From: an uncultured Nitrospira sp.
Lineage (GTDB): Bacteria; Nitrospirota; Nitrospiria; SBBL01; JAADHI01
NCBI GenBank assembly: GCA_964451325.1
Contig: CAYVHO010000004.1
Span: forward strand, 22,254-86,253
Direction: 5' to 3'
Length of the DNA: 64,000 nt
The position numbers were made by a program, and so were the translations under genes. Below, one piece after another: positions 4,283 through 63,248 of the stretch. The notes under the pieces were generated by a model. That model was not told the DNA's origin. It did not search any database and was given only the letters and a program-made list of their open reading frames with translations. Every line of letters begins with the position of its first letter. Position 1 is the first letter of the stretch.

Positions 4283-5134
4283 TTACATTTTATATTTTTG
4301 TGCGCGTTGCCGAATAAGAACGGCAAGGAGATTCATTGTAAACAGAAGGATCAATAAAACAATGATGCCTGCCCCGGCCAGTCCGTGAAAATCGGCCTGA
4401 GGTCTTCCCGCCCAATTGAAGATCTGAATGGGCAGGACCGTAAAGGGGTCTGAAGGGCTTTCCGGAACAAAGGCGACATAGGCCAATGCACCGACCATAA
4501 TCATCGGGGCGCTTTCTCCAATCGCTCTGGAAATGGCAAGAATCAAGCCGGTCATGATGCCGGGCAGTGCAGCAGGCAGGATTTGACCTATAATGACCTG
4601 CCAGCGCCTTGCGCCTAAGGCATAGGCCGCATCTCGAATGGCATTCGGCACGGCTCGAATGGCTTCCTGGGAAGAAATGATAATCACGGGTAAAACAAGC
4701 AGACTCAGGGTCAAGGCCCCGGCCAAGAGACTGCGATCCAGATCAAAGAAACGCACAAAAATCGTAAGCCCTAAGAGCCCGTAGACAATCGAGGGCATTC
4801 CCGCCAGGTTTGAAATATTAATCTCTATCCATCGGATCAGTCGTTTCCTGGGGGCATATTCCTCTAAGTAAAATGCCGTTGCGACACCCAGGGGGACGAC
4901 AAAAAGTGTGGTCATCGAAATGAGCCACAAGCTGCCGAACAGGGCGGATTTCACTCCGGCTTTATGCGTAAATCTTGAAGGAAAGCTGTTTAAAAAGTTC
5001 ATGTTGAGCCAGGACAGGCCCTCATTTAGTATATGAAAGAGCAGAATGCCCAGAACGGCCACCGCACAAAACGTGACACTCCGACACAGAAATAAAAAGA
5101 GATGCTCTCTTGTTTGTCGCCATCCTTTGTTCAT
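4283..5134 (-). CDS. pstA: Phosphate ABC transporter permease PstA.
   Basis: 283-aa polytopic membrane protein; operon position between pstC and pstB. Confidence 0.88.
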
Positions 5135-6126
5135 ATCGCCCTTCTTTTGTCTGAAGAAATCAGATAATTCCCAAACATGTTCATGCTCAGGGTCATCACA
5201 AATAACAGTGTCGCCACGGCATATATAGTCAGATATTCAATGCCACCCGCCGGCGTGTCTCCCAAACTCACCTGTACGATGTAGGCCGTCATGGTCTGAA
5301 TGCTCTCCAGAGGGTTCAGGGTCAGGGTCGGGGTCGCCCCCGCTGCAAGGGTGACGGCCATGGTTTCGCCGATTGCCCTGGAAACGGCCAGAACAATGGA
5401 GGCCCCCACGCGAGACTTGGCCGCAGGCAACACGATTTGGGTCGTGACTTCGTAGGGCGTCGCTCCAAGGGCATAAGCCCCGTCACGCAGGTCTCCCGGA
5501 ACAGCACGAAAGGCATCATCGCAGAGCGAAGAAATCATCGGCAGAATCATGATCCCGACAACGATGGCAGCGCTGAGTGCGTTAAAAATCTGTATGTCAG
5601 GCAAGACCGTTTTGATGATGGGTGTGACAAAAGTCAGGGCAAAATAACCGTAAACAACGGTCGGAATGCCCGCCAGAATCTCAAGTGTCGGTTTGATGAT
5701 GGCGCGAAAGCGACTTGAAGCAAACTCATTTAAGTAGGCTGCAATGAGCAATCCGGCAGGCGCTGCCAACAACATCGACCCGACGACAATGAGAAGCGTT
5801 CCCGATACCAGGGGCAGCACCCCGAAGGACTTGGGTTCAAGCAGGGGTTCCCAGCGTGTGCCAAACAAGAACTCGAAGAGGGAAACCTGTGAGAAAAAAT
5901 TCAGAGACTCTCTGCCCAGGATCAGTACGACGGTTCCGGTCGTCAGGACAGTCACCAAAACACAAAGAAGGAGTGTCAGGTGAACACCGTGGTCGATCCA
6001 TTTTGCTTTATCTGTCAATATCGGCAATGGACTACTTTCCCGCCTGATGGATTTGTTTGAGGCCGTCTTCGTATTGTGCCGTCGGCAGTGGCACATAACC
6101 CACTTCTTTGGAAAGCAGCGGCGCAT
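5131..6126 (-). CDS. pstC: Phosphate ABC transporter permease PstC. The true start is probably downstream of the listed ATG, since the listed ORF overlaps the pstS 3' end by about 95 nt.
   Basis: Polytopic membrane protein between pstS and pstA. The first 30 codons or so of the listed ORF overlap pstS and are non-hydrophobic and Arg/Cys-rich, suggesting an internal or alternative start. Confidence 0.85.
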   Translation of the reverse strand: MRRCFPKKWVMCHCRRHNTKTASNKSIRRESSPLPILTDKAKWIDHGVHLTLLLCVLVTVLTTGTVVLILGRESLNFFSQVSLFEFLFGTRWEPLLEPKSFGVLPLVSGTLLIVVGSMLLAAPAGLLIAAYLNEFASSRFRAIIKPTLEILAGIPTVVYGYFALTFVTPIIKTVLPDIQIFNALSAAIVVGIMILPMISSLCDDAFRAVPGDLRDGAYALGATPYEVTTQIVLPAAKSRVGASIVLAVSRAIGETMAVTLAAGATPTLTLNPLESIQTMTAYIVQVSLGDTPAGGIEYLTIYAVATLLFVMTLSMNMFGNYLISSDKRRAI

Positions 6127-6970
6127 TCTCCAGGTAAAATTTCATAAACTCAAACACTTCGGTCCGCCCCAGTGCAGATAAGCTGACATAGATAAAGATG
6201 GGACGGGAAAGAGGAGAATAGCTACCATCGTTGATGTTTTTTTCAGAGGGTGACACGGCTTCTGCGCTATCCTGAATCGGAACCGCTTTGACGAGTTGTC
6301 TGTTTTCAAAATAATAAGCAAAACCAAAATAGCCTAAGGCATCTCGGTCACCAGCAATCCCCCGCACGAGGACATTCGGGTCTGCACTCATGGTATAGTT
6401 CGAACGGCTGGCGTGTGCTTTACCGTTAATCACCTTCGTAAAATAATCAAAAGTGCCTGAATCCGTCCCTGGCCCGTAGAGGCGAATCTTACGATCCGGC
6501 CAGATGGAACGGACATCCTGCCAGGTTTTGACGGTGCTTCCTGGCTGCCAGATTTTTTTTAATTCGGCGACACTTAAAAAATCGACCCAGGTGTTTTCAG
6601 CATTGATCACGACAGCAATGCCGTCATAAGCAATGGGCAGCTCAAGATAGGCGACCTCGTTTTTTCCGGCAGTTTTAATCTCGCTCGCTTTCATCAAGCG
6701 CGATGCATTATTGATATCGATTTCACCTGCAGAAAATTTCTTAAAACCACCGCCTGTACCGGAGATACCGATGGTCACGCGCACCCTGGGGTATTTGTGA
6801 CCGAACTCCTCTGCAACGGCTTCGGTAACGGGGAAGACCGTACTGGAACCGTCAATTTTAACCGTTCCTCTCAAGGGTTTTGCGAAGGTGTCATTGACAA
6901 AAGCCGTGGAGAGAAAGGCAAAAAACACTAATATTTTTAAAAGTTTTGAATAAATCGAATCTCTTTTCAT
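6032..6970 (-). CDS. pstS: Phosphate-binding periplasmic protein PstS.
   Basis: Signal peptide then GSSTVxP...SGTGGG motifs typical of PstS. Start chosen at MKRDS, preceded by RBS ggagaa. First gene of the pst operon. Confidence 0.9.
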
Positions 6971-7815: not shown

Positions 7816-7967
7816 TTTTGTATTCCTCCAATTTATCTTGTTTTAAAATCCGTTTTTATTAACGGCAAGACAAACTTACGATAGTGATTTTGGGGAATAA
7901 TGAGGGGATGATGAGAACTTGATTAGAGTGTAAAGAAGTGTCTTATCGAATTCAGGAAGAAGGTGGC

Positions 7968-8243
7968 TTATCGATTTTCCCGCGTATGCCAAATACGCAG
8001 AATGTAAAGATTCGACTGCTGTATTTCGTAACGCAGTTCATAACGACCGATGAGTAGACGGCGAACGTCACGCGGTTCAAATTCTTCAAGTTTTTCGCCA
8101 ATACGAGGTTGTTTGATGAGTAGAGTAGGTGATGTGACAAGAGATTGTACCGTCTGCGCAGCCGCTTTTCTATTGATTGGAGCTAAAAATTCGTACAACC
8201 GGGCCAAATCCGACAGGGCTTTTCTCGTCCATTTCAGTTTCAT
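7968..8243 (-). CDS. Type II toxin of the RelE/ParE family.
   Basis: 91 aa. The 4-nt ATGA overlap with the upstream small RHH gene gives the classic antitoxin-toxin order. Sequence pattern consistent with ParE-like plasmid-stabilisation toxins. Confidence 0.7.
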   Translation of the reverse strand: MKLKWTRKALSDLARLYEFLAPINRKAAAQTVQSLVTSPTLLIKQPRIGEKLEEFEPRDVRRLLIGRYELRYEIQQSNLYILRIWHTRENR

Positions 8244-8500
8244 TTCTTTGGAAGCGGCAAGGGCTGATCGGTATCAAGGCTATCCGCCCAGGCTTGAACA
8301 GCCTGGTGATCAATTACAGCATCATCAACCTCTGCAAGTGCCTCTAAAGTGAGTCGTCTGCGTTCTTCCTCCTGTTCTACCCAGGCGCTGAGCGCTTGTT
8401 TTACGATCCAAGCCCGTGAACGTTCTAGCCGAGAGGCTATCTGATCGACTTTTTCCGCAAGAGAGAGAGGAACATGAGCCGTAATGACTTTGTTATCCAT
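8240..8500 (-). CDS. Type II antitoxin with a ribbon-helix-helix (CopG/ParD-like) fold.
   Basis: 86 aa with an N-terminal RHH-like segment (VITAHVPLSLAEKVDQIASRLERSRAWIVKQAL) and an acidic C-terminus; translationally coupled to the toxin. Confidence 0.7.
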   Translation of the reverse strand: MDNKVITAHVPLSLAEKVDQIASRLERSRAWIVKQALSAWVEQEEERRRLTLEALAEVDDAVIDHQAVQAWADSLDTDQPLPLPKK

Positions 8501-8824
8501 GGAGTACCTCTTTTTATTTTCAGTCTAAATGAATCATAGTGATTTAGATTGATTGAGTCAATGCCGCTTCCCTAGAATTTTGTGGAATTCGATTTGAAAG
8601 ACTGTACAAATAAGAAAAATTCAAAAACCACGAGTACAGGAAGACAGGGAGCGGCATTGACGACATCTACAACTAAACAGCTTTATTGATGAGATATTTT
8701 GAGAAATACGAGGAGGAACAGAGAATAGGGGAAACAGTACCGTCCCAGTTCTAGTAAGATCATTTTTTATAGACTTCAGTCAAATACTCAGGCTTGCAAA
8801 CCAAAATATTTGCTGCATCTCGCC

Positions 8825-9565
8825 TTAGCCAGAGGTTGGACTCCAACCGTCAATCACGGTTGGAAGTTTGGTGGCTTTTCCACCCTCGGATATGCGTATT
8901 GAACTAGAACTTTGTTGCAGCTGGTGAGCAATATATATGGAGTCAATAATGGGGCTAACCAGAATAGATTTGCCCAAAACATGAATCCTTTGTTCGGCAG
9001 ACATTAGATTTAGCGAGGATGCATGATAGGAGTCCCCAGAATCAAGTACCAAAAATCCTTGAGGCATGAGTTCTCTGCATACACTGTGGACAATTCGTGT
9101 ATTGTTTTTAGAGACTTCACAGTGAAAATCTAGAAAATTTAAATGGTGAGATTCTTCGTGCGTGTCAATTACCTCAGAACAGAGACTCACGTTGAGAGTG
9201 TTTCCCTCGGTAACTTTCACGAGGATATCTGATTCCAGATCTCGTCTATAGTAATCAATGGACTGCCCCTGGCCTTGGTGAAAAAATGTCGCTTTCAACA
9301 ATGCAGCGGTACACTCCCCACTCTTCATGCAGGCGGAAAAAATCGCTTCCCAGAAGGGAACCTTCGTGGCCTTTCGAATTGAAAGAGCCTGCTCGATAAT
9401 CGTTTTTTCGAATTCCTTGATCTCAATGCGTTCTTGAAGAAGTGGAGGTGACGTGTACCTGAAGATGGTGCATCTCTCTATATTCTGATGCGCAAGAATA
9501 AGCGTCCGATACGCCAGCGAGGCTGGCTTTCCAATAAGCTCATCTATTTCAGACTGTCTCAGCAT
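8825..9565 (-). CDS. Uncharacterised protein of about 246 aa, encoded immediately downstream of the patatin-like gene and overlapping it. Putative partner in a two-gene module.
   Basis: The listed ORF (8825-9694) overlaps the upstream gene by 115 nt. The internal Met (MLRQSEIDEL...) gives a roughly 14-nt overlap typical of operonic coupling. No recognisable motif. Confidence 0.45.
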   Translation of the reverse strand: MLRQSEIDELIGKPASLAYRTLILAHQNIERCTIFRYTSPPLLQERIEIKEFEKTIIEQALSIRKATKVPFWEAIFSACMKSGECTAALLKATFFHQGQGQSIDYYRRDLESDILVKVTEGNTLNVSLCSEVIDTHEESHHLNFLDFHCEVSKNNTRIVHSVCRELMPQGFLVLDSGDSYHASSLNLMSAEQRIHVLGKSILVSPIIDSIYIAHQLQQSSSSIRISEGGKATKLPTVIDGWSPTSG

Positions 9566-9578
9566 AAATACAATGCTT

Positions 9579-11543
9579 CTAACTTTCTTGCTTCGTTGGG
9601 CGTACAGCACCTTCGATGGAGCGAAAATTTTCGTAATTAAACTCACTGATACGCTCTTCATGAGGCAACTGATAAGTTGACAACAGAGCTTCACGGGGAT
9701 TAATTGGTCGGCCTGGAAGTGGGTGGTCCGCGATATTATTTACGACCAAACTGTAAAGAGAATCCACTCCCATTCTATTAAGATAAAAAACCCGCGTGTT
9801 TCCCTCTATCACAACCAGATTATTTCCCCACTTTTCCATGACCGGTGGGGTCACAGATGAGACGTATTGTCCATCCGCCATTATCTTCGCTGGCTTACAG
9901 AATGGTATTCCGTATTTTTCGTACAACACTGCTAGATGGGCAATTTGACGATACTTGTAAGAACGAACTCGTCGAACGATCATTTTGACAGCTTGATCGG
10001 TCTCTTGTTTTAGAGACACTTGTTGTATCTCGATCTTGACCTTCGGGTCTCTATATTGATGAACTCCTTGTTTCAGTAAGGATATAAGTTTGTTCGAGTC
10101 GTCCTCTTCCAGAGTTAGCTTAGGTCTGCTGTGCCCGCCAGAACCGAGTAGTTGATCCAGCTGCTTAAGGAGAATCTCGATCATGGGGCGATGTTTCGTT
10201 CCGATATAAACCACACCTCTAGGGGAATACTCTGTTGCACTGATGTCTTGGATAAAGACTGAATTGTGACGATTGTCTTCGTGACTAAGAAGAAAGCAGT
10301 TCAGTGGGATCTGGTCAGTCTCAATAACTTTCGCGCCCATTTTTTTAAGCAGGTCTCTCCGGTGGTTTTCCCGGGTATCACCAGATCCTGACTTTACGAG
10401 AATATCAACTTCAGCACCTGCAAACATCCAGTGGGCGATTGAAGGGAAGAGCCGCCAGTACCATTTTGTACCTGAGCAGGAGACAACAAGGCGTTTCCCT
10501 GGTGTTACCATCTCTCTAACGAGATCATCAAACAGCTCGTCTTCACTATACCGGGCAACATCGGACGCCAATGAATCGTTGAGTTCTGAGTGTTCATTCT
10601 GGATGAAGTCCTTCACAGCAGCGCGTCCAGAATCAAGCAATAATTTAACTTCTTCCGTAGAAATATTGAAATTTATGCTGGATACTGCATCGGTATTGAT
10701 ATTAACTGAACTAATGTTGCTCTGCATCTTGATCTGCAGATCCGTCGCTCCGCTGATGATTGTGTCAATCAAACGATGCACTAGCCAACTTAGTGTCCAC
10801 TCAGTTTTCGGTTCTTGATGCTCTACAAGACGAAAAGCGAGAATACGGCCACCAAGTGCCGGTGAATTGTTTCCCTGATCATCAAACACGAACGATGGAA
10901 GATTACTTAGCATTCCGCCATCGACAAAGAAATCATTTCCAGATTCCACTGGCTCAAAAAAGAGGGGAATCGAGCAAGAGCTGCGAACGGCCATTGCAAC
11001 TTTTGCATCGGGTGTGTCTTTCGTACTCCAAATCTTAGGACGTCGACCAGCAAGGTCAGTTGCAATTACCCACGTCGGAAGAATTAGATCACTAAACTTA
11101 ATGGGACGTGGTTTATTTGGAAGTAATTCGGAAAGAAGATCATCCAGCCAATCCTCCAATTTCTCAGATGAGTACGCCGAACCGTTTTTTAGAATTTTCC
11201 CAAAAAGTTCATTCTTCCCTTTAAAAAAAAGGCTCCCGGCGCGACCCCACCAAAATGTCGAAATACGTTTCTTGGGTTCTGCCAGCAGTGTGCTAAATTT
11301 AAGATATGCGCATTTCTCGTAGAGAAATTTCTCGTTTGCGCCAGCTCCAACAAGAACAGCGATAATGGATCCTGCAGATGTACCAGCAACTTCGGAAAAA
11401 TTAACACCGCACTTAATGGCAGCTTCGTAGGCTCCGATGTGACCCGCCCCGCGACAGCCCCCTCCCTCGAATACACCACGACAGGCCTGAAAAAACTTTG
11501 TTTGTGGGTACTGCTCTACAGCTGCATTGTCATTTACATGCAT
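9579..11543 (-). CDS. Patatin-like phospholipase domain protein with a large uncharacterised C-terminal region of about 430 aa.
   Basis: N-terminus has the oxyanion-hole GGGCRG, the catalytic nucleophile GTSAG (GxSxG) and the catalytic-Asp DGG (FFVDGGMLSNLP) motifs in the canonical patatin order and spacing. The C-terminal 430 aa are unrecognised. The distal segment (..NLVVIEGNTRVFYLNRMG..) loosely resembles a ParB/Srx-like core. Confidence 0.8.
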   Translation of the reverse strand: MHVNDNAAVEQYPQTKFFQACRGVFEGGGCRGAGHIGAYEAAIKCGVNFSEVAGTSAGSIIAVLVGAGANEKFLYEKCAYLKFSTLLAEPKKRISTFWWGRAGSLFFKGKNELFGKILKNGSAYSSEKLEDWLDDLLSELLPNKPRPIKFSDLILPTWVIATDLAGRRPKIWSTKDTPDAKVAMAVRSSCSIPLFFEPVESGNDFFVDGGMLSNLPSFVFDDQGNNSPALGGRILAFRLVEHQEPKTEWTLSWLVHRLIDTIISGATDLQIKMQSNISSVNINTDAVSSINFNISTEEVKLLLDSGRAAVKDFIQNEHSELNDSLASDVARYSEDELFDDLVREMVTPGKRLVVSCSGTKWYWRLFPSIAHWMFAGAEVDILVKSGSGDTRENHRRDLLKKMGAKVIETDQIPLNCFLLSHEDNRHNSVFIQDISATEYSPRGVVYIGTKHRPMIEILLKQLDQLLGSGGHSRPKLTLEEDDSNKLISLLKQGVHQYRDPKVKIEIQQVSLKQETDQAVKMIVRRVRSYKYRQIAHLAVLYEKYGIPFCKPAKIMADGQYVSSVTPPVMEKWGNNLVVIEGNTRVFYLNRMGVDSLYSLVVNNIADHPLPGRPINPREALLSTYQLPHEERISEFNYENFRSIEGAVRPTKQES

Positions 11544-11679
11544 GGATCAAACTCCACGATTCAAGGCTAATGTGTTTCGTGATGTAAAGAGTATGTAGCC
11601 AGTGCAAATAGAAGAAATTCGTGCCCATCCAGATAAGTCCAACTCCCGACAACAAGTCTAACGGAAAAGAAAAAAAATG

Positions 11680-11716
11680 ATGACGATGTAGAACTGAGAA
11701 TAAAATCTACATCGTT
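11680..11716. promoter_or_regulatory. Hairpin-forming inverted repeat in the AT-rich region upstream of the patatin operon.
   Basis: ACGATGTAGAactgagaataaaaTCTACATCGT: 10-bp arms with a 13-nt loop. Confidence 0.3.
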
Positions 11717-12049
11717 TAGGAATCTTTTTCAATGCGTATTTCTATTCAAAATTAGCGAATACGGATTGAAACATTGGATTAATCAAGGAAAATCAAAAAC
11801 CAACATTTCAGAAAGAAAGACAGGAAAACTGATCAGCCTGCAGAAAATCTATATCAGAGTCCGGCCTTCTCGGAGAAAGAAAGGAAAAAACCTCAAGAGC
11901 CTTTAAGCATGAACAACCCGTTGATGGGGGTTTTCATCCTTAGAGCGGTTTATATGAATATCACTAATCCATTTATGTACATTTTTACAGAAATTAATCT
12001 TTAATCAAGATAAACTTTTCTGAAAGACGAGAAGTGTGATAAATCCAGA

Positions 12050-12240
12050 ATTAGCTCAGTAACTTCCGGTTAGGAAATTGCGCCACATTAGATCCTAATA
12101 AAAAATGTCATTTCGACGAGGAACGAGGAGAAATCTTAATACGGTGTTCTGGTTTTTTGATCCAAAAGGATAAGATTTCTCTCTTCGTTCGAAATGACAG
12201 GGCTATCGCAAATTTGTAGCCGGAAGTTACTGAAATTAGT
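12050..12240. repeat. MITE-like nested inverted-repeat element, copy A.
   Basis: Inner palindrome GTCATTTCGACGAGGAAcGAGGAGAAATCTTAT...ATAAGATTTCTCTCtTCGTTCGAAATGAC plus an outer stem GTAACTTCCGG...CCGGAAGTTAC. A second copy, about 85-90% identical, lies at 18795-18975. Confidence 0.6.
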
Positions 12241-12249
12241 TGGAAAAAA

Positions 12250-14031
12250 TCAGGCAGGCAGATGGATGGAAAAAATACTCCCCTGATTGAGTGTGCTTTG
12301 TACTTCAACGCTACCGTCGTGAGCCAATGCAATATGCTTGACAATGGAGAGGCCAAGCCCCGTGCCGCCCATTTTTCGGCTTCGTGCTTTATCGACACGA
12401 TAAAAGCGCTCAAAGAGTCGGGGTAGATGTTTCTTGGTAATGCCAGAACCCTGATCTGAGACTGAGATCGTGAGTCCTTTTTCTGTTGTCCCGGCATTGA
12501 GCATGATCCGGCTTTCGCTGTTGCTGTACTTGATTGCATTGTCCAGTAGGTTCACGACAGCCTGCTCGATCAAGGGGGCGTTATGTCTGACCGTGCAGTC
12601 ATCAGCACAAGCCAGTTCAATATTGATATTTCGCTCAGAGGCTCGGCTTTGACAAAGCGACAGTGCACGCTCCAGTGTCGGTTTAATCTTTTGATGGTTT
12701 AAGGCAATTTCCTTGTCTTCACCTTCCTTTTCAAGTCTGGACAGTGTTAACAAATCCTCAAGAATTGTACCCAGTCGTGTCGCCTGTTTATGGATGATTT
12801 TGACAAACGCGTCTTTTTCTTCCTGATCGCTCACTGCCGGATTGAGCAGGGTTTCAGCAAAACCTTGAATCGTCGTCAGGGGTGTCCTCAATTCATGCGA
12901 GACATTGGCGACGAACTCTTTCCGATGTGTTTCAAGCTGCTTTAATTTCGTGATGTCATTGATCACAAGGACAATGCCGCATTTATTTTTCTGGATATCC
13001 AACAGAGGGGCGGATTGAATGAAAAGATGAGGACCCTTTTCTTGCTGAATTTCGATCTCTCGCTCCATCGGCGCATCTTGTTTCAATGAAAACAGAACGA
13101 GCTTTTGTAACTCGGCATTTCGGATGACCTCCTGAACCGCCATGCCTGCAACCTCTTTTTTGGCAATATCAAGAATCTGACAGGCCGCAGCATTGATGCG
13201 CAGTATACGTTCGTTGGTGTCGATGGCGATCACGCCTTCGATCATGCTGGAAAAAACGGCTTCCTGTTCATTGCGTTGATTCAGCACGGTTTCAATGCGT
13301 TGATTCAATTGAATGGCGATTTCATTGATGGCCTGCGCGAGCAAGGCCAGTTCGGAAGGATCGGAGGGCGTGAGTTGCACCCGGCTGGAAAAATCGCCTT
13401 GTGCGATAAGCTGTGCCTGCACTTCCATCGCTTGCAGAGGGCGACTCAGGCTCTTTGATATCCACCAACTTGAGAGGGCAATGAGTAGAATAAAGACAAA
13501 AAATCCAATGGCGACTTGAGTGTAAATATGCCAAAGGGCTTCCTGGATTGCGATTAAAGGCCTTGAGGTGCGAATAACGCCAAGCACCGTATTTGTCGCA
13601 GTGATGGGCATCGCAAAATACATGGACTCTTTTTTTAAGGTGGTACCGTATCGTATTGAGACACCTCGCCCCGATTGCAGGGCTTCTGAAATTTCAGGGC
13701 GCTCCCGGTGATTGTCCATATCCATCGGGTTTTTTTTGCTGTCTCCAATCACGGTTCCAGAGGGCAGAATAACCGTGATGCGGGTCTGGGTCTCCTCTCC
13801 CAACTTTTCACAGCGATCTTGAATCTCTGCAAATTTTCCGTCTTGAATCAGTCGGGCAAATTCCGCTCTCACGAGTTTTGCTCGAACCTCAAGATCGAGT
13901 TCCCGTTGTTGGTAATGAAAAGTCTTAAATGACAGGCAGGCAATGACAGTAACGGCAAGCAGGGAGACAAATGAAATGAAAACAAAGGAGGGATAAAGTT
14001 TCCAGAAAAGCGGGCGACGTTTCATCTTCAA
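12250..14031 (-). CDS. phoR: Phosphate regulon sensor histidine kinase PhoR.
   Basis: 593 aa with N-terminal TM segments, a PAS-like region, H-box HELRTPLTTIQGF and HATPase motifs (DNAIKYS.., GGTGLGLSIVKHI). Directly downstream of phoB. Confidence 0.88.
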   Translation of the reverse strand: MKMKRRPLFWKLYPSFVFISFVSLLAVTVIACLSFKTFHYQQRELDLEVRAKLVRAEFARLIQDGKFAEIQDRCEKLGEETQTRITVILPSGTVIGDSKKNPMDMDNHRERPEISEALQSGRGVSIRYGTTLKKESMYFAMPITATNTVLGVIRTSRPLIAIQEALWHIYTQVAIGFFVFILLIALSSWWISKSLSRPLQAMEVQAQLIAQGDFSSRVQLTPSDPSELALLAQAINEIAIQLNQRIETVLNQRNEQEAVFSSMIEGVIAIDTNERILRINAAACQILDIAKKEVAGMAVQEVIRNAELQKLVLFSLKQDAPMEREIEIQQEKGPHLFIQSAPLLDIQKNKCGIVLVINDITKLKQLETHRKEFVANVSHELRTPLTTIQGFAETLLNPAVSDQEEKDAFVKIIHKQATRLGTILEDLLTLSRLEKEGEDKEIALNHQKIKPTLERALSLCQSRASERNINIELACADDCTVRHNAPLIEQAVVNLLDNAIKYSNSESRIMLNAGTTEKGLTISVSDQGSGITKKHLPRLFERFYRVDKARSRKMGGTGLGLSIVKHIALAHDGSVEVQSTLNQGSIFSIHLPA

Positions 14032-18496: not shown

Positions 18497-18736
18497 ATGC
18501 CCGCCTATCATGTCGGTCTGGGTTTTGAATCGACTGAGGTTTTGTTGGATCAATCTCTGAAGTCAGAAGCCTGCAGTATGCACGCGAGTTGGTATTACAG
18601 TGCGCATGGCCGTTTGCAAATAGAGGCACGTCACCTCGATAGAGACAATGCCGATGACGGCCTTGAGGTCTTGTTTCAATGGAATATTGTCTTAGCACCA
18701 CACAGCGAAAAACCTTTTTTGAGTGTGTTGGAATAA
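18497..18736 (+). pseudogene. Possible 3' remnant of a disrupted gene. Its last 14 codons or so are duplicated at 19627-19672.
   Basis: Short ORF with no RBS. Its terminal segment ..APHSEKPFLSVLE* recurs almost identically (..SPQSEKPFLSVWE*) 0.9 kb downstream. Confidence 0.25.
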
Positions 18737-18794
18737 TCCAATAGAATTGTATCCAAATGAGTAATTCTGTCTTCTGGGCATTAGTCCATTTCAG

Positions 18795-18975
18795 TCACTC
18801 CCGCTTAGGAAATTACCTTACTTTAAATCCGCAGGAAAAGTGTCATTTCGACGAGGAATGAGGAGAAATCTTATGTTGTCTTCTGGCTTTTTAATCCAAA
18901 ATGATAAGATTTCTCTCCTCGTTCGAAATGACAGGGCTACTGCAAATCTGCAAGCGGAAGTTACTGGATTCATCT
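18795..18975. repeat. MITE-like nested inverted-repeat element, copy B.
   Basis: GTCATTTCGACGAGGAAtGAGGAGAAATCTTAT...ATAAGATTTCTCTCcTCGTTCGAAATGAC with a flanking AGTCACTCCCGCTT...AAGCGGAAGTTACT stem. Homologous to 12050-12240. Confidence 0.6.
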
Positions 18976-19282
18976 ACGAGAGGATATTTTTGATATTTCT
19001 TGAGATGTGCAATATGCGAATGATTTCAATTTCCTCGCCGCTTGGCCGGTAGAAGACAAGGTATTTTTTAAATCCCTTAATCGGGAAAAATCGTATATTT
19101 GAGAGCAAGCTATTTTGTGAAGGATAACATTCTCCCATTTTGGCTTGCTCAGATAACATCCGATAGGTCTCTTTTGCTGCATCGTACAGCCTTAATGCCG
19201 CATTGAGATTATCTTTAGCAATATGGAAGGCATGTTCATCTAAATCTTTTTCTGCCTCAATAAGAATCCTATAGGACAGCAT
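18974..19282 (-). CDS. parE: Type II toxin of the ParE/RelE family.
   Basis: 102 aa; stop-start adjacent to the upstream ParD-like gene; ParE-like sequence pattern. Confidence 0.72.
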   Translation of the reverse strand: MLSYRILIEAEKDLDEHAFHIAKDNLNAALRLYDAAKETYRMLSEQAKMGECYPSQNSLLSNIRFFPIKGFKKYLVFYRPSGEEIEIIRILHISRNIKNILS

Positions 19283-19525
19283 TTAATGCCCTATTCTTGA
19301 TTTCAGGGCCTTCTTTTTATTCTCCCAAAAAGCATCATCCGGTTTTATCGCTGTGCCGCTATGAAGTCCTTCCAACAACAAAGTATCCAGGTCTTCTTGC
19401 TCCCTTTGGTCGCTGCGTACCAAATCTCGTAGATAATCGCTTGCACTTGTGTATTTACCTGTTTTAATTTGAGAAGTAATCCATTCACGCATGTTTTCAG
19501 GTATGGAAATATTAAGTGTTGCCAT
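19283..19525 (-). CDS. parD: Type II antitoxin of the ParD/COG3609 family.
   Basis: 80 aa. N-terminal MATLNISIPENMREWITSQIKTGKYTSASDYLRDLVR matches the RHH ParD/addiction-module antidote pattern. RBS ggaggt upstream. Confidence 0.75.
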   Translation of the reverse strand: MATLNISIPENMREWITSQIKTGKYTSASDYLRDLVRSDQREQEDLDTLLLEGLHSGTAIKPDDAFWENKKKALKSRIGH

Positions 19526-19705
19526 CTATATACCTCCGTAGTAAAGACTTGTTCTTATTTGAAAAATAGTCTTTTCTGCCAATTGTTGTCAATAATTGGC
19601 TGGGTTTCCTGTACTGGAATATCAGCTTGTCACCACAGAGCGAAAAACCTTTTTTGAGTGTGTGGGAATAAATGAACGTTAAATTCCGCCACTATTCTAA
19701 TCTTT

Positions 19706-20749
19706 TCACATAATAAGTCGTCGTGAGAGATGAACGATGACAAGGGCATAGTGGACGGAGGTATTGTAGCGTGTGATGGCGCGAAAGTTTCCAAAAAGTG
19801 CGATGAGTTCCTTTTCATCCGGGTTAGGTTCAAAATACGAAAAGGATGTGAGGGTCTCTGCTTTTGCAGGGTAGGGGATTTCGACCCCCATTTTGATGGC
19901 TTCTGCTACAGAAATCGTTTTTCGAAAACCACGATTTAGCATTTTTTGCAGTTCGGGGGAGTCTTTGTAGATTTGAGCTGGCAGATAAAGTAGCTTGTCT
20001 TTTTCCCAGCCAAATTTTTTAAGATAATTCGCAACACTGGCAAAAATATCTTTTTTAGATTTCCAGAGATCGACTTTTCCATCTTGATCAAAATCAACTG
20101 CATATCTTAAAAAACTACTGGGGATAAATTGCGGCACGCCAAAAGCACCTGCATAAGAACTATTGATCGAAAAGGGATCGAGCTTTTCTTTGCGTGTCAG
20201 TTTTAAAAAGGAGATGATTTCGCCCCGATAAAACTTTTCGCGTCTGGGGTAAAGAAAAAAAGCCGTATTGAGCACGTCAAAGGCCCGATACCTTTCGATA
20301 CCCGGTTTTCCAAAACGGGTTTCAACACCCAAAATACTTGCAATAATTTCCTTTTCAACCCCGTAGACCGCTTCAACTTCTGAGAGGAGTTTATCGTGTT
20401 CGGCCAAATAAGCCCGGCCTTTTTCTATCATGTCTTTTTTGATGAAAATTTTACGATAGCGGTGAAAAGGGAGGTGTTCTGCGGGGCGATTAAATTTATC
20501 AATAATGTCTTTTTTGAAGACAACCTGTTTAAAAATGGCTTTTAATTCATCAGCCTTAAAATTGTGTTTTTCAGTGAGTTCTTTAATCAAGGCCTGATAT
20601 TTGGGATGCTCCAGTGGAATGCGATCCGGGCCTTCGGCAGCATAAACCGAATAAGCAGACAAAGATCCGAATAAAAGGAAAATAAAAACGCCCGTAAAGA
20701 TTAAGCGTATCTGTTTGGAAAAGTACAGGTCTATTCGCATTGTTTTCAT
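19706..20749 (-). CDS. mltB: Lytic murein transglycosylase (MltB family).
   Basis: Signal or TM N-terminus; conserved ..ETRFG.., ..SYAGAFGVPQFIPSS.. and ..DFDQDGK.. motifs of the MltB/SLT-2 family. Confidence 0.85.
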   Translation of the reverse strand: MKTMRIDLYFSKQIRLIFTGVFIFLLFGSLSAYSVYAAEGPDRIPLEHPKYQALIKELTEKHNFKADELKAIFKQVVFKKDIIDKFNRPAEHLPFHRYRKIFIKKDMIEKGRAYLAEHDKLLSEVEAVYGVEKEIIASILGVETRFGKPGIERYRAFDVLNTAFFLYPRREKFYRGEIISFLKLTRKEKLDPFSINSSYAGAFGVPQFIPSSFLRYAVDFDQDGKVDLWKSKKDIFASVANYLKKFGWEKDKLLYLPAQIYKDSPELQKMLNRGFRKTISVAEAIKMGVEIPYPAKAETLTSFSYFEPNPDEKELIALFGNFRAITRYNTSVHYALVIVHLSRRLIM

Positions 20750-41519: not shown

Positions 41520-42941
41520 TTGGGAAATGAATTGAAATATAAAAAGGAAATCAAGCCTTTCTATAAACCGGAAGACCTTCAGGAAGATGAAATTGACTTA
41601 CTCACATTATGGCGAGTATTGGTAAAAAGAAAAAAAGTTATTTTTTGGACGACTTCTCTGGCCGCAATTTCAGGGTTTGTATTTTCCTTCTCACAAACGC
41701 CTGTTTACGAAGTCAAATCAAATCTGGAAATCGGGCACATCGGAGAAACTTTGATTGAAGCACCACAAGTACTGCAAAGAACCCTCAAAATTGTTTTTAA
41801 GGTCGATCCTGAGAGACCGACTTCTGATGAAGTGAATGATTTGATCGTGTCGAGTATTTCTTTGGATAAAAACGCTGAAAATTTTTTGCGTATCAAAACA
41901 GAAGGTCTATCCAAAAATGAAGCCCTCAAAAAAAATGAGGAAGTTGTTCAATATGTTCAGGATCGTTTTCAGAACAAAATTGACCAATATATCCTAAGAA
42001 ATAAAAACCAAATAAGGAATATTCAAAGAGAGATCGTCCATATTGGTACTGTTGAGATAAAAGAGATTGATGCGCGGATCAAGCTCCTAAAAACACAGAA
42101 TATTGTTAAAATTGATGAAGAAATTCAGCGTCTAAAAACCCAAGACCTTGTCAAAATTGATGAAAACCTTGAACGATTAAAAACACAGGATGTTGTTAGA
42201 ATTGATGAAAAAATACATCGCCTAAAAACACAGGATATCCTTAAAATTGACGAAAAAATTGAGTTTTTTCAAAAAGTGAAACTGGTATCTCTTCAAGCCA
42301 AAATTGACTTTCAAATTAAAAAGTTGAATGAATACAGTCATTCTGTCGGAGAAATTAACAGCCTCAAAGAAACAGACACAACATCTTCGATGATTTCTTC
42401 CATACAAATGCTGAATTATCAAAATTTAATTTTAAACGCTCAAAAAGACATCGAAGATCTAAAATTAAACAGGAGTGTTATTTTAAACGAAACAATTCCC
42501 GAACTCTTAAGACAAAAAGAGAATATTCTTAAAGTGAGTATCAAAGATTTAAATATTAGGAAAAACAACATTTTGAATGTCGATATAAAAAATCTTGTGA
42601 TGCAAAAAGAAAATATTTCAAATGTAAGCATTGCAAACCTTCAAAGGAATAAAAATAAAATACAAAACGAAACAATCAGAAAGCTGGAAAATCGACGGAA
42701 TATTGTCTTGAAGGCAAAAACGGCTAAACTGAGAGAAGAGATGGAAACCCTTGAGTTCAATATTTCGAAAGAAAATTTACAAAATGCTGAGGTCGTTGGG
42801 GATTACCTTGTTTATGAATATCCCTTGCGACCACGAAAAAAACTCATCATCTCTCTCGCATTTTTGATGGGCCTTTTTTTGTCAGTTGTATCGGTATTTT
42901 TACTCGAATCTGTTCGTAATCAGAAATTGCAGCGCACTTAG
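41520..42941 (+). CDS. Second Wzz-like (PCP) protein with an extended repetitive coiled-coil periplasmic domain.
   Basis: Wzz-type N-terminus (..IDLLTLWRVLVKRKKVIFWTTSLAAISG..), a C-terminal TM segment (..ISLAFLMGLFLSVVSVFLLESV), and 4 x 16-aa in-frame tandem repeats (LKTQ[DN]xVKIDExIxR). Confidence 0.55.
   Translation: MGNELKYKKEIKPFYKPEDLQEDEIDLLTLWRVLVKRKKVIFWTTSLAAISGFVFSFSQTPVYEVKSNLEIGHIGETLIEAPQVLQRTLKIVFKVDPERPTSDEVNDLIVSSISLDKNAENFLRIKTEGLSKNEALKKNEEVVQYVQDRFQNKIDQYILRNKNQIRNIQREIVHIGTVEIKEIDARIKLLKTQNIVKIDEEIQRLKTQDLVKIDENLERLKTQDVVRIDEKIHRLKTQDILKIDEKIEFFQKVKLVSLQAKIDFQIKKLNEYSHSVGEINSLKETDTTSSMISSIQMLNYQNLILNAQKDIEDLKLNRSVILNETIPELLRQKENILKVSIKDLNIRKNNILNVDIKNLVMQKENISNVSIANLQRNKNKIQNETIRKLENRRNIVLKAKTAKLREEMETLEFNISKENLQNAEVVGDYLVYEYPLRPRKKLIISLAFLMGLFLSVVSVFLLESVRNQKLQRT
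42080..42270 (+). repeat. Four tandem copies of a 48-bp unit, in frame, within the Wzz-like gene.
   Basis: (c)taaaaaca cag/caa gat/aat nttgttaaaattgatgaa...: units start near 42086, 42134, 42182 and 42230. Confidence 0.7.
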
Positions 42942-60003: not shown

Positions 60004-60582
60004 ATGAATTATTGGAGCAGAGCGAAGCGTCCTTTCGATTCGATTCTGGCTCTGTTCCTGTTAATGATTCTCTTTCTTCCCGTCTTGGTCATTGCTTTAA
60101 TGATTAAATTAACCTCTGAAGGCTCGATCTTGTACTGGTCTGATCGAGTTGGAAAAAACAATACCATCTTCAGAATGCCTAAATTCAGAACAATGAAAAT
60201 AAACACACCTGCAGTAGCAACTCATCTCTTATATAACTCAGAACAATACCTCACCCCAATCGGTCGCTTTTTAAGAAAATCAAGTTTAGACGAAATCCCA
60301 CAGCTTTTTAGTATTTTAAAAGGAGACCTAAGTTTTGTAGGCCCCAGGCCAGCTCTCTTCAATCAGGAAGATCTAATTGAACTTCGGACAAAACAAGGAA
60401 TCCATAAAATTAAACCTGGTTTAACTGGGTGGGCTCAAGTTAACGGGAGAGATGATCTGCCTATTCCCAAAAAAGTTGAGCTTGATACTTATTACCTCAA
60501 TCATCGCTCTTTTTTTTTCGATCTTAAAATTTTATTGATGACCCCATTTAAAGTAATGCGTTCAGAAGGAGTTAAACATTAG
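60004..60582 (+). CDS. Small PglC/WbaP-C-terminal-like phosphoglycosyltransferase (bacterial sugar transferase family).
   Basis: N-terminal re-entrant helix (..RPFDSILALFLLMIL..) and conserved ..PKFRTM.., ..DEIPQLFSILKGDLSFVGPRP.. motifs. Confidence 0.85.
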   Translation: MNYWSRAKRPFDSILALFLLMILFLPVLVIALMIKLTSEGSILYWSDRVGKNNTIFRMPKFRTMKINTPAVATHLLYNSEQYLTPIGRFLRKSSLDEIPQLFSILKGDLSFVGPRPALFNQEDLIELRTKQGIHKIKPGLTGWAQVNGRDDLPIPKKVELDTYYLNHRSFFFDLKILLMTPFKVMRSEGVKH

Positions 60583-60716: not shown

Positions 60717-63248
60717 ATGGGAAAGCGATTTTTTGATTTTGCTTTGGCGTTTGTTTGTCTTGTTCTGCTTTTTCCTTTCTTTTTTGTCCTTAGCCTAATG
60801 ATCAAGTCAAGCTCTCCTGGTCCCATTTTTCAGAAACACAAAAGGCTTGGGAAGGGATTTAAACCTTTCTCTCTTTATAAATTCAGAACGATTCAAGAAA
60901 ACAGTTTGAAGGCTGAATCTTTGGCTGGTGGTAAAGCCGAAGTCGAGATGACGCCACTTGGAAGGCGCTTGCGACATCTCAAAATTGACCTTCTCCCGCA
61001 GCTATTTAATATTTTAAAAGGTGAAATGAGTTTTGTCGGTCCACGCCCGGAAGACTCTGACTACGTTGCTTTATTTCAAAAAGAATATGAGACGATTTTT
61101 AAAATTTTGCCGGGGATCACAGATCTGGCTTCAATTGCCTTTATTAATGAGACGATTATCCCGCCTGTCTCGGATCGTACTCAAACAACTGATACACATT
61201 TTGTCCTCCCAAAAAAAACAAAACTGGCACTGGCTTATGTTGGAGAAAGATCTTTTCTGCTTGATTTGAAAATTTTATCTGCAAGTTTCCTGAATTTTGT
61301 TCTTTCATTTCCTTCTCCATTTAGGGAAAAAGGGACACCAGGAAAGCAAGAGATTCGTACTGTTATTTTCAATGCCCGCGCACAGATTATTTTTGTGGCT
61401 CATTCAATTGCAATTATTCTCTGTAACTACGCAGCATTTTGGTTACGTTTTGATGGTAATATTCCTGCAAAAACATTTGATCTTTTTTTGAGCACAATCC
61501 CCCTGGTTTTTCTCGTCCGAATGGGGGTGCTTTATTTATTTGGATTGAATCGCGGTCTTTGGCGCTATGCGGGACTTCGGGACTTACTGACGATTGTCGG
61601 TTCTGTCGTGACGGGGACTGTACTCATCTGGGGTGCCATCACACTCTTGCCCTGGCAGGGCTATCCGCGATCCATTTATTTGATTGACACAGTGCTTCTA
61701 CTTGTTGTTTTTGCAATGCTTAGAAGCCCTAAAAGGGTTTGCAGTATTTTGACCCATACGGGAGTCGGCGGACGTCGGATTTTGATTGTCGGTGCTGGAA
61801 ACGCGGGGGAAATGATTGCGAGGGATATGTGTCAGGATCGTCGCTATGGATGTCGTCCTCTTGCCTTCATTGATGATGACCCGGATAAACGCTTCAAAAA
61901 AATTCACAATATTCCAGTCGCGGGAAATTGTGAGGAAATGGAAAAAATTGTTGCTAAGGTCCGTCCTGATGAGCTTCTTATTGCAATCCCTTCCGCAAAA
62001 CCGGGCGAAATAAAAAGAATAATGGGTTATTGCAAGGTACTGAATCTCCCAATAAAAACATTGCCGAATGTTGCCGCAATGCTCGGAGGCAATCTTTCAA
62101 TGATGGATATTCGAAGTCTTGATATTGAGGATCTGCTGGGAAGGGCCGAGATTCAAATTGATGATCCTGCACTTTCTGAAAAAATTCGTGAAAAAAAGGT
62201 ACTTATTACGGGCGCAGGCGGATCCATTGGTTCTGAACTTTGTCGGCAACTTGCGGTTCTGCAACCGAAGCAGCTTATCTTACTTGAGCGACATGAAAAC
62301 AATCTCTATCAGATTGAAATGGACTTACGTGAGCATTTTTCGGGCTTGAAAATCGAGGGAATTCTTGCTGATATTTGTGATGCTGAAAAGATGGATCAGG
62401 TTTTTTCCGAATTTCGACCTCAAATGGTTTTTCATGCTGCGGCTTACAAACATGTTCCCATGATGGAGCGCAGCCCTTTGGATGCGATCCGAAACAACAT
62501 TCTTGGCACACATCAAATGATTTCAAAATCAAATTTATATGGTGTGGATGAGTTTGTTTTAATTTCGACGGATAAAGCAGTTTCTCCCTCAAGTGTCATG
62601 GGTGCGACAAAACGCATTGCCGAAATGATGATTCGTTATTTTGATTCCTCAAGTCAAACCAAACTCGTTTCAGTGCGTTTTGGAAATGTCTTGGAGAGTG
62701 CAGGCAGTGTTGTGCCACTCTTTCGATCTCAAATCAAAAGAGGTGGCCCTGTTAAGGTAACCCACGTAGATGTGAAACGTTATTTTATTTCTATCAAGGA
62801 AGCGGTACAACTCGTACTTCAAGCTTCTCTATTGGGAAAAGGGGGAGAAATATTTGTCTTGGATATGGGGGAACCGATTAAGATTCTTGATCTTGCAAAA
62901 AAAATGATTACCCTCTCCGGATTTTCTCCAGAACGTGATATTCCAATTCAAATCATCGGTCTTCGTCCTGGAGAAAAACTACATGAAGGGCTTTTTGAAG
63001 TAGGGGAAGAGGTCAAACAGACGCAACACGATAAAATTCGTTTGGCTAAAAAGAGAAAGGTTTCAGTTGATCTTCCTTCTTATATCGAGCGCTTCGCTAA
63101 GATGAATAACCATACAAGTTTAGAGGAAATCAAGTCTCTTTTGAAAGAGTTGATCCCAAAATATCAATACAAAACGGCGTGTCCGCAGCCTAATTTTCAA
63201 GCCGTAAAAAAAACCGCCCATCTAAAAACAACTTCGCTAAAAAGTTAA
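60717..63248 (+). CDS. Fusion protein: an N-terminal phosphoglycosyltransferase (bacterial sugar transferase) domain joined to a WbpM/PglF/CapD-type membrane-anchored UDP-sugar 4,6-dehydratase.
   Basis: Residues 1-200 or so carry ..KRFFDFALAFVCLVLLFP.., ..YKFRTI.., ..DLLPQLFNILKGEMSFVGPRPE... After a 4-TM region, ..ILIVGAGNAGEMI.. and ..VLITGAGGSIGSEL.. Rossmann motifs and ..YGATKR.. mark a CapD/PglF dehydratase. Confidence 0.75.
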   Translation: MGKRFFDFALAFVCLVLLFPFFFVLSLMIKSSSPGPIFQKHKRLGKGFKPFSLYKFRTIQENSLKAESLAGGKAEVEMTPLGRRLRHLKIDLLPQLFNILKGEMSFVGPRPEDSDYVALFQKEYETIFKILPGITDLASIAFINETIIPPVSDRTQTTDTHFVLPKKTKLALAYVGERSFLLDLKILSASFLNFVLSFPSPFREKGTPGKQEIRTVIFNARAQIIFVAHSIAIILCNYAAFWLRFDGNIPAKTFDLFLSTIPLVFLVRMGVLYLFGLNRGLWRYAGLRDLLTIVGSVVTGTVLIWGAITLLPWQGYPRSIYLIDTVLLLVVFAMLRSPKRVCSILTHTGVGGRRILIVGAGNAGEMIARDMCQDRRYGCRPLAFIDDDPDKRFKKIHNIPVAGNCEEMEKIVAKVRPDELLIAIPSAKPGEIKRIMGYCKVLNLPIKTLPNVAAMLGGNLSMMDIRSLDIEDLLGRAEIQIDDPALSEKIREKKVLITGAGGSIGSELCRQLAVLQPKQLILLERHENNLYQIEMDLREHFSGLKIEGILADICDAEKMDQVFSEFRPQMVFHAAAYKHVPMMERSPLDAIRNNILGTHQMISKSNLYGVDEFVLISTDKAVSPSSVMGATKRIAEMMIRYFDSSSQTKLVSVRFGNVLESAGSVVPLFRSQIKRGGPVKVTHVDVKRYFISIKEAVQLVLQASLLGKGGEIFVLDMGEPIKILDLAKKMITLSGFSPERDIPIQIIGLRPGEKLHEGLFEVGEEVKQTQHDKIRLAKKRKVSVDLPSYIERFAKMNNHTSLEEIKSLLKELIPKYQYKTACPQPNFQAVKKTAHLKTTSLKS

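Follow-up and report, generated by a model that had tools for sequence, protein, structure and literature searches.

Two nested palindromic elements of an uncultured Nitrospira sp. are probably inverted dimers of TGTC-tagged REP units

The 64,000-nt stretch of uncultured Nitrospira sp. DNA analysed here (contig CAYVHO010000004.1; "the window" denotes this whole stretch, not the element) carries two similar intergenic elements, copy A and copy B. Each copy is probably a dimer of inverted, TGTC-tagged repetitive extragenic palindromic (REP) units of the CGTC superfamily, nested in a lineage-specific outer palindrome of 12–14 bp. The element is a known repeat class in a known nested-dimer arrangement and not a new kind of element; related genomes lack it at the corresponding sites.

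In a repeat search of the window the two copies align directly, in the same orientation, as two blocks split by a 1-nt indel. Block 1 pairs 12056–12138 with 18791–18873 (82% identical) and block 2 pairs 12144–12232 with 18878–18966 (88% identical); BLASTN gives 83% over 177 nt. The first-pass annotation of this DNA, which had reported two look-alike intergenic copies and regarded them as more than a chance similarity, was right on both points, as the 17-mer GTCATTTCGACGAGGAA occurs exactly twice in 64 kb compared with 0.15 expected occurrences. The similarity extends no more than about 10 nt past the outer stems. Searching with a covariance model built from the unit described below (model R1) detects exactly four units in the window, two per copy; the 9.3 kb that follow the window and 34 kb of sequence from relatives contain none. 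The parts of the two copies are listed below, with the strand where a feature has one.

12049–12054: AATTAG, left copy of a 6-bp direct repeat around copy A, a possible target-site duplication
12056–12233: copy A, 178-nt composite of outer palindrome and inner REP dimer
12056–12069: outer stem of copy A, 5′ arm, TCAGTAACTTCCGG
12106–12136, plus strand: left TGTC-tagged REP unit of copy A, T-GTC-ATTTC-GA-CGAGGAACGAG-GA-GAAAT-C-T, with the 11-nt insert C-GA-G-GAA-C-GA-G (model R1 31.3 bits, E 1.8e-4)
12137–12172: spacer between the inverted units of copy A, the apical part of the long hairpin
12173–12199, minus strand: right TGTC-tagged REP unit of copy A, T-GTC-ATTTC-GA-ACGAAGA-GA-GAAAT-C-T (model R1 44.1 bits, E 3e-7)
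12220–12233: outer stem of copy A, 3′ arm, CCGGAAGTTACTGA
12234–12239: AATTAG, right copy of the 6-bp direct repeat around copy A
18791–18966: copy B composite, oriented as copy A
18792–18804: outer stem of copy B, 5′ arm, CAGTCACTCCCGC, with one G-C to C-G swap relative to copy A and two positions that are G-U only or unpaired
18841–18871, plus strand: left TGTC-tagged REP unit of copy B, insert CGAGGAATGAG (model R1 31.3 bits)
18907–18933, minus strand: right TGTC-tagged REP unit of copy B, insert ACGAGGA (model R1 41.1 bits)
18954–18966: outer stem of copy B, 3′ arm, GCGGAAGTTACTG

On both strands, both copies are predicted to fold into nested hairpins of −63 to −75 kcal/mol, far more stable than those of dinucleotide shuffles (z −5.7 to −9.7), which answers the proposed folding check in the affirmative. 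The stronger-folding strand differs, being the plus strand for copy A and the minus strand for copy B. The palindrome that had been described as a near-perfect 33-bp pair is real, but it is not perfect over 33 bp: a foot of 10 perfect pairs (GTCATTTCGA/TCGAAATGAC) and a top of 11–12 perfect pairs (GAGAAATCTTA/TAAGATTTCTC) enclose an asymmetric middle, which measures 11 nt in the left and 7 nt in the right arm. The second, enclosing stem is present as reported; in copy A it has 14 pairs, all of them perfect, and in copy B 12 pairs. Of the compensatory changes claimed for this outer stem, exactly one is two-sided (G-C to C-G), and another pair becomes G-U on the minus strand; coming from two sequences only, these changes are weak evidence of selection on the outer stem.

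The core of each copy consists of two inverted units of 25–31 nt, whose tags point outward and which are separated by a spacer of about 36 nt. The unit has the consensus T-GTC-ATTTC-GA-(insert)-GA-GAAAT-C-T, and its conservation ends at the T preceding GTC, with no conserved flank beyond. All four units of the window begin with TGTC; across 115 distinct units GTC is invariant, preceded by T in 81 and by C in 23. The stem is followed by C, then by T in 195 of 270 cases, and then by C or T. A single unit is made up of the 5-bp stem ATTTC/GAAAT, a tandem G·A/A·G, a short variable stem and a G-N-A triloop, so that five Watson-Crick pairs, the tandem and at least 1–2 further pairs add up to 8–9 stacked positions, not all of them base pairs. 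The inserts range from 5 to about 25 nt (5, 7, 11, 13 and 17–25 nt; 11 nt in the left arms of the window, the usual unit being 27 nt long) and are mini-hairpins in themselves, such as CGAAG, CCGAAGG, GCGCAGC, ACGAAGT and CTGAAAG; longer ones iterate the theme, for example C-GA-AC-GAA-GT-GA-G. A G-N-A loop is found in 74 of the 115 units.

These 115 distinct 27-nt units were picked by fixed letters only, with no filter for complementarity, and served as the covariation set. Paired cells amount to 96.1% versus 84.2% in shuffles, a value reached by none of 500 shuffles, and 115 cells are altered on both sides compared with 39.6 in shuffles; slid controls are only 10–60% paired. One position is occupied by GC in 45, CG in 44 and AU in 14 units, two others by UA or CG, and the pairs 5–25 (A-U) and 6–24 (U-A) are invariant. 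One stem position was fixed by the search patterns. Stem variants from outside the search selection are complementary as well (ATCCC/GGGAT, ATCTC/GAGAT, ATTCC/GGAAT, ACCTC/GAGGT). This covariation proves that each unit folds on its own into a single-strand hairpin.

Since G·T and A·C mismatches are about equally frequent, the covariation does not tell RNA from single-stranded DNA. From comparison with known structures, the paired G-A/G-A beside the basal stem would give tandem sheared pairs on the purine strand only. Sequences of the type C-G-N-A-G or GCGNAGC are unusually stable DNA mini-hairpins with a sheared G·A, and are found in single-strand replication and transcription signals (PMC13037366). 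In the mini-hairpins d(GCGNAGC) and d(CCGAAGG) of Hirao and co-workers, two Watson-Crick pairs are closed by a sheared G·A with one looped base (PMC13037366). The unit tips GCGAAGC, GCGCAGC, CCGAAGG and ACGAAGT match this motif exactly; unlike the present family, such mini-hairpins are known from phage and plasmid origins and N4 promoters and not as a dispersed repeat family.

The family had also been proposed to be a structured repeat RNA, which finds no support: Rfam gives no match in the whole window, only noise for the element region at E ≤ 10, and merely an unrelated fluoride riboswitch among 18 family loci, and the covariation is that of a single-strand hairpin, which would suit RNA and single-stranded DNA equally. 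A dedicated structured RNA, that is, part of the 3′ untranslated region of phoR or parE or a small RNA, selected for termination, exonuclease protection, an RNase III site or translational coupling, is unlikely. Such a role would fit the extreme fold energies and the position of the copies, which begin 7 nt (copy B) and 16 nt (copy A) past the stop codon on the strand of parE and phoR, as well as the inner hairpin on the mRNA (minus) strand, behind which copy A has UUUUUU and copy B has UUUU. Moreover, the minus strand allows better pairing of the outer stem in copy B, via G-U, and effects on mRNA stability and translation are known for REPs located near stop codons (reviewed in PMC3733652 and PMC6006769). 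However, there is no overall strand preference between the copies, no wobble bias across the family, and the flanks of family members do not resemble terminators. Because a dimer has its two units on opposite strands, each transcript contains only one purine-rich form; G-N-A triloops closed by C-G are a hallmark of stable DNA and not of RNA mini-hairpins (PMC13037366); and termination at the U-run would leave the 3′ arm of the outer stem untranscribed.

The features of the unit correspond to those of one published class of repeats. Di Nocera, De Gregorio and Rocco (2013) divided REPs into a GTAG-tagged and a CGTC-tagged superfamily, the latter including dRS3 of Neisseria and RPE-4 and RPE-6 of Rickettsia and being reported from five phyla (PMC3733652). 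According to their description, CGTC REPs carry the tag CGTC, often TGTC, and have a stem of 8–9 bp that starts with A·T and T·A, a loop of 4–5 nt and a short unpaired 3′ tail with the consensus CCA. Inverted dimers with spacers of 20–100 bp dominate, heterodimers are frequent, and tens to thousands of copies occur per genome. The repeats are situated between same-direction or convergent open reading frames (ORFs), frequently with fewer than 20 bp between them and a 3′ end, and flank no transposase gene; no dedicated enzyme is known for them, and structurally unusual members may have escaped the published search (all PMC3733652). Matched to this published description, and not to the consensus sequences CGTC-1 to CGTC-4, the present units agree in the tag (T/C)GTC, the A·T then T·A start of the stem (ATTCC... 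or ATTTC...) and the unit length of about 27 nt, and their short C-rich tail resembles the published one without being identical to it. They also share the inverted dimers with outward tags, the commonness of heterodimers, the intergenic location near 3′ ends and the lack of a dedicated transposase. Both types give rise to spurious peptides of one kind, SFPRKRES/DSRFRGND and VIPAKAGI/IPAFAGMT in the published case and HFDEERGEI/ISLFVRND here, and the published peptides agree with tags that point outward. Canonical units such as CGTCATTCCCGCGAAAGCGGGAAT coexist with the present type in the fetched loci (46 versus 674).

The nested arrangement likewise has precedents. In Halothiobacillus neapolitanus and Anabaena variabilis, CGTC-1 and GTAG-15 dimers, respectively, are nested in long outer palindromes, and no "empty" palindromes were found (PMC3733652). 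As in these genomes, the dimers of the window are centred in a genome-specific palindrome whose arms occur only around the dimer; they differ in that the outer sequence is unrelated, the arms stand 20–36 nt away from the dimer, with non-palindromic linkers, and only two copies are known.

To follow the distribution of the units, one genome per species was scanned with the pattern GTCATTTCGA-N55-85-TCGAAATGAC. More than 119 genome loci match, compared with an estimated chance expectation of about 34, and almost all of them also hold GAGAAATC/GATTTCTC, inner blocks that are absent from the pattern. The matches include Bacteroidota (Flavobacterium, Pedobacter, Mucilaginibacter, Bacteroidales), Clostridia, Bifidobacterium, Anaerolineae and other Chloroflexota, Desulfobacterota (Desulfobacterales), Syntrophales and Nitrospirota (Nitrospiraceae). 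They further comprise Spirochaetota (Leptospirales), Calditrichota, Ignavibacteriales, Hydrogenedentota, Pseudomonadota (Beta- and Gammaproteobacteria), Saccharibacteria and one Bathyarchaeota bin. The unit is thus spread over at least a dozen phyla, many more than described for the CGTC superfamily, including Chloroflexota, Clostridia, Nitrospirota and Desulfobacterota.

Counts of matched and mismatched stem variants among viral contigs (at least 120, at least 120 and 23) were discounted as a covariation test, the chance estimate being about 50 per pattern, and the unbiased tests given above take their place. Thirteen related phage contigs (L287, L291, L293, L295, L297, L300, L309, L316, L318, L344, L352, L363 and L376; L numbers denote fetched loci throughout) match the unit pattern by coincidence: the matched stretch is kept across all of them, lies inside a prohead protease/capsid ORF in L295 and has no mini-hairpin, which calls for caution with pattern-only counts in viral sequences.

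The family set comprises 133 dimers with 55–85 nt between the stem feet, 119 of which are situated outside long ORFs. Convergent, tandem and divergent gene pairs surround them in 33, 56 and 10 cases, compared with a background of 105, 387 and 94, so that convergent settings are over-represented and divergent ones under-represented, with a median of 81 nt to a 3′ end. Within a dimer, the two arms are independent of each other, being identical in 28 and of unequal length in 62 of 111 parsed dimers, and 83 of the 111 are heterodimers. Between copies within one genome, similarity mostly comprises the dimer and its spacer and ends at the dimer ends. Some metagenome-assembled genomes contain contigs that start and end in the repeat (L021, L031, L071), which suggests that these genomes hold many copies; the enclosed genes are ordinary metabolic and cell-wall genes.

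Several observations weigh against assigning the elements to the CGTC superfamily or limit what can be drawn from it. In contrast to the published members, the stem is broken here by the conserved tandem G·A/A·G (CGA...GAG), the loop is a G-N-A triloop of 3 nt and not of 4–5 nt, with inserts extensible to about 25 nt, and the tail reads C-T-(C/T) and not CCA. Within about 73 kb of this genome (the window together with L393) the composite is seen only twice, that is, as two dimers. Because many of the matches come from metagenome-assembled genomes, some of the phyla, such as Bathyarchaeota and Saccharibacteria, may be binning errors. Across the family, T is abundant in the upstream and A in the downstream flank, the reverse of what a two-way terminator would show. 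Since no transposase, REP-associated tyrosine transposase (RAYT) or other, is linked to the units, the mechanism of spread is inferred. Finally, the sole filled-versus-empty pair concerns another unit and not the composite. In two viral contigs that are 94–98% identical (L184 10350–10431, filled; L212 about 6679–6695, empty), the insert of 82 nt comprises one ATTCC/GGAAT-type unit with unique flanks and is located just after a stop codon.

The first-pass annotation had favoured a non-autonomous transposable element and labelled it a miniature inverted-repeat transposable element (MITE). The former holds in so far as the units belong to a large family of structured palindromic repeats that are apparently non-autonomous, and the latter is not supported. 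Were the copies classical MITEs, the 178-nt composite would be mobile, with the outer 13–14-bp repeats bound by a DDE transposase that leaves short target duplications and the REP dimer as a passenger. In line with this, the outer inverted repeat is kept between copies A and B, the flanks past the dimer are common to both, and copy A lies within a perfect 6-bp repeat, AATTAG, a length of at least 6 bp being reached by about 0.8% of shuffled flank pairs; it also occupies a phoR-porin spacer that is short and has no unit in relatives. By contrast, the suggested check for target-site duplications yields a repeat of just 3 bp at copy B, and flanking direct repeats of the dimer family do not exceed shuffled controls. 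The widespread unit ends exactly at T-GTCA...TGAC-A with no conserved flank. Only two copies were found, which have diverged by 12–18%, and gene tables covering 5.8–26.7 kb of the window and about 50.7 kb to about 9 kb past its end contain no transposase or insertion sequence with matching ends. A classical MITE is accordingly quite unlikely. Correia/NEMIS MITEs resemble the present elements in being small, having terminal inverted repeats, forming a long RNA hairpin and lying between genes. Correia elements have TA duplications and defined terminal repeats, whereas the family described here shows no duplication and its conserved parts are internally structured hairpins.

The flanks past the dimer that the two copies of the window share score 23 and 21, compared with a background 95th percentile of 13, and the outer-arm 12-mer CGGAAGTTACTG is found nowhere else in the window or, source contigs aside, in 129 fetched loci. 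The composite can therefore be regarded as one ancestral arrangement that is present twice. That it is seen only twice would also suit a chance similarity or the remnant of one segmental duplication. Given 177 nt at 83%, a 17-mer found twice against 0.15 expected, an end of similarity no more than about 10 nt from the outer stems and unrelated flanking genes, this explanation has next to no probability. The duplication of a segment including its neighbouring genes, named by the first-pass annotation as the alternative, is further contradicted by the ParE protein encoded beside copy B, which has no detectable similarity to the ParE at the far end of the islet adjoining copy A.

In 29% of the family dimers, the 60 nt on either side contain the arms of an exact inverted repeat that is 8 nt long or longer, as opposed to 7% of shuffled flank pairs. 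Clear cases of an outer palindrome are L053, L066, L107, L056, L054 and L077, while some others are neighbouring units or A/T runs. In L054 (about 5009–5145) and L077 (about 5018–5148), REP dimers are located within the 21-nt arms of another type of palindromic repeat (AACCCCTCCTAAATCCTCCCC..., ACCTCACCCCTAACCCCTCTC...). A metagenome scan with GTTCGAAATGACAGGGCTA, in a collection without the source sample, gave seven matches and no further composite: five are situated in sequence with no hairpin of the family, L126 is an ordinary dimer and L127 retains just a half-unit. No match was obtained by BLAST of copy A against a plasmid database, no translated copies with the 51-aa ORF spanning copy B as protein query, nothing by Pfam on the six-frame peptides of the element, and only primers in literature text searches by 10-mers and their variants.

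Both copies were said to abut toxin-antitoxin or defence cargo. This is literally true for copy B and only loosely for copy A, whose immediate neighbour is phoR. The genes next to the copies are the following.

12250–14031, minus strand: PhoR-type histidine kinase gene (context), stop codon 16 nt from copy A
18974–19282, minus strand: ParE toxin gene (context), stop codon 7 nt from copy B

Copy A is intergenic, between the phoR stop codon (12250) and a patatin-like/iHKD gene, which it precedes by 512 nt on the upstream side. The nearest protein relatives come from bins labelled Nitrospiria or Nitrospirae. In relatives whose PhoR is 70–85% identical, phoB-phoR is followed by 100–130 nt and then by a porin gene or pstS and by pstCAB-phoU, and none of these phoR-porin/pstS spacers contains a REP unit. 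Compared with three related genomes, the region of about 7816–12249 represents a 4.4-kb insertion between phoR and porin/pstS, which is composed of copy A, 512 nt, the patatin-iHKD gene, an AEP-like (primase-polymerase-like) gene and RelB/ParE. The patatin-like phospholipase is fused to an inactive HKD domain and gives weak matches to the PADLOC "phospholipase effector". The insertion has the appearance of a small islet for defence or addiction that lacks an integrase, and copy A may have entered the phoR 3′ region separately, as a small insertion of its own.

Copy B is intergenic as well, 7 nt from the stop codon of ParE (18974–19282), next to which ParD is encoded (19283–19525). Relatives of the adjoining SLT_2 gene (77–92% identical; L394–L398) share the upstream order CzcA/B, OEP, YacG, DUF3108 and HD, and the similarity to them ends at the SLT_2 stop codon (window 19706). 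Past SLT_2 the relatives continue with a convergent gene of 582–587 aa, HPPK and FolB, and the window with ParDE, a znuA/ABC-3 operon and phoBR; the relatives have neither ParDE nor copy B, any unit or the 57-nt repeat described next. As they lose homology exactly at the SLT_2 stop codon, no clean empty site can be defined for copy B. A second small repeat of 57 nt (18680–18736 and 19615–19671; direct, 88% identical), which is an imperfect palindrome (CCACA.AGCGAAAAACC TTTTTTGAGTGTGTGG), brackets ParD-ParE together with copy B. None of the other fetched loci contains this repeat, and a partial look-alike is found just past SLT_2 in the relative L395.

These settings raise the question of whether the element is a recombination or replication signal of mobile islets, that is, an attachment or cassette site or a single-strand priming signal for toxin-antitoxin and defence islets. 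Copy A stands at the phoR edge of an insertion absent from relatives, copy B comes after ParDE where the gene order breaks and is bracketed by the 57-nt direct repeat, mini-hairpins such as CCGAAGG are recognition elements of the ssi sites used by the RepB′ primase, and the outer ends of copy A (...TAAC/GTTA...) faintly resemble integron attC cores. In spite of these parallels such a signal is highly unlikely. Family members are not associated with genes for toxins, defence, integrases or primases, no integrase is listed in the gene tables around either copy, and the two islets have only the element in common, which precedes the cargo in A and follows the toxin in B. An integron attC site was considered and rejected: the outer ends, which read CAGTAAC/GTTACTG in copy A and, with CAC replacing AAC, CAGTCAC/GTTACTG in copy B, do not conform to the cores RYYYAAC/GTTRRRY, and there is no array and no integrase within 10 kb. 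As a general association, the link to toxin-antitoxin and defence genes does not hold. Pfam assigned 197 families to 150 neighbours of family members, none of them in more than three proteins, with no enrichment of toxins or transposases, and no recurrent neighbour protein or transposase was found next to family members. Clustering of the ORFs nearby gave only generic or phage structural proteins, and the genes bracketed by units, inspected by eye only and with no domain library, include nothing recognisable as a transposase.

For the spread of the nested REP dimers, a model is provided by other REP systems. REP dimers of the REPIN and BIME type, which are associated with RAYT (TnpA-REP), consist likewise of two inverted units with a spacer that form a long hairpin, are extragenic, occur in arrays, carry a tetranucleotide 5′ of the hairpin foot and show no target duplication (PMC3116915, PMC2817692, PMC6006769). 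They differ in their guide, GT[AG]G in place of (T/C)GTC, and GTAG REPs vary from species to species (PMC2817692), whereas the core of the present units is conserved across phyla. No RAYT gene is present in the gene tables for 5.8–26.7 kb of the window and about 50.7 kb to about 9 kb past its end. A BIME-like tandem array of at least five REP dimers with a period of 86 nt lies between two genes in L094 (3661–4100).

For GTAG REPs and the ends of IS200/IS605 elements, the 5′ tetranucleotide guides a Y1 enzyme (PMC6006769). By analogy it is moderately likely that the present units spread in trans via single-stranded DNA. They would do so as single-stranded DNA hairpins, processed by an enzyme that leaves no duplication, for which the HUH/Y1 type acting on GTAG REPs may serve as a model. 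The 178-nt composite would have arisen once, when a dimer came to lie in the outer palindrome, and would then have been copied or imported twice. If transcribed together with phoR or parE, the hairpin 7–16 nt past the stop codon is predicted to act as a barrier at the 3′ end, against 3′ exonucleases, or as a terminator.

A few further features were observed outside the two copies. In L393, at 20092–20633 and about 7–8 kb past the window end, genes for a 76-aa protein and a PemK toxin are located between carA and an S49 peptidase/carB, with no REP unit adjacent. Four copies of a 63-nt repeat, spaced every 45 nt and 68–76% identical, occupy 42066–42263 within a 473-aa ORF (41520–42941) and represent a coding repeat of 15 residues. 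Two short repeats 698 nt apart (60180–60344 and 60878–61042; 81–82% identical) extend across adjacent sugar-transferase (Bac_transf) genes, which suggests paralogous N-terminal regions.

For the genome studied here, the main gain is that a false lead falls away: the elements are probably REP-type repeats rather than an RNA gene, a recombination site or a new mobile element, and the closeness of both to toxin-antitoxin genes is probably incidental. For the repeat class, the results indicate that CGTC/TGTC-tagged REPs reach well beyond the five phyla of the original description. One widespread variant has a precisely kept architecture, the tandem G·A with the G-N-A mini-hairpin, together with strong covariation and no Rfam family. 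This variant yields spurious small ORFs and can break metagenome assemblies. The combination of no target duplications and no linked transposase restates, with more data, the question of how "orphan" REPs spread. A more far-reaching and speculative idea, which we consider improbable, is that the TGTC units with tandem G·A and G-N-A tips form a distinct clade of orphan CGTC REPs, very widespread across a dozen or more bacterial phyla and perhaps archaea too. A single conserved trans-acting protein that reads the single-stranded DNA mini-hairpin, for example a HUH/Y1 or primase-like enzyme, would maintain their near-identical 18-nt frame, and the composite beside toxin-antitoxin and defence islets would mark capture sites. 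If this were true, finding that trans-acting protein would answer how CGTC REPs spread.

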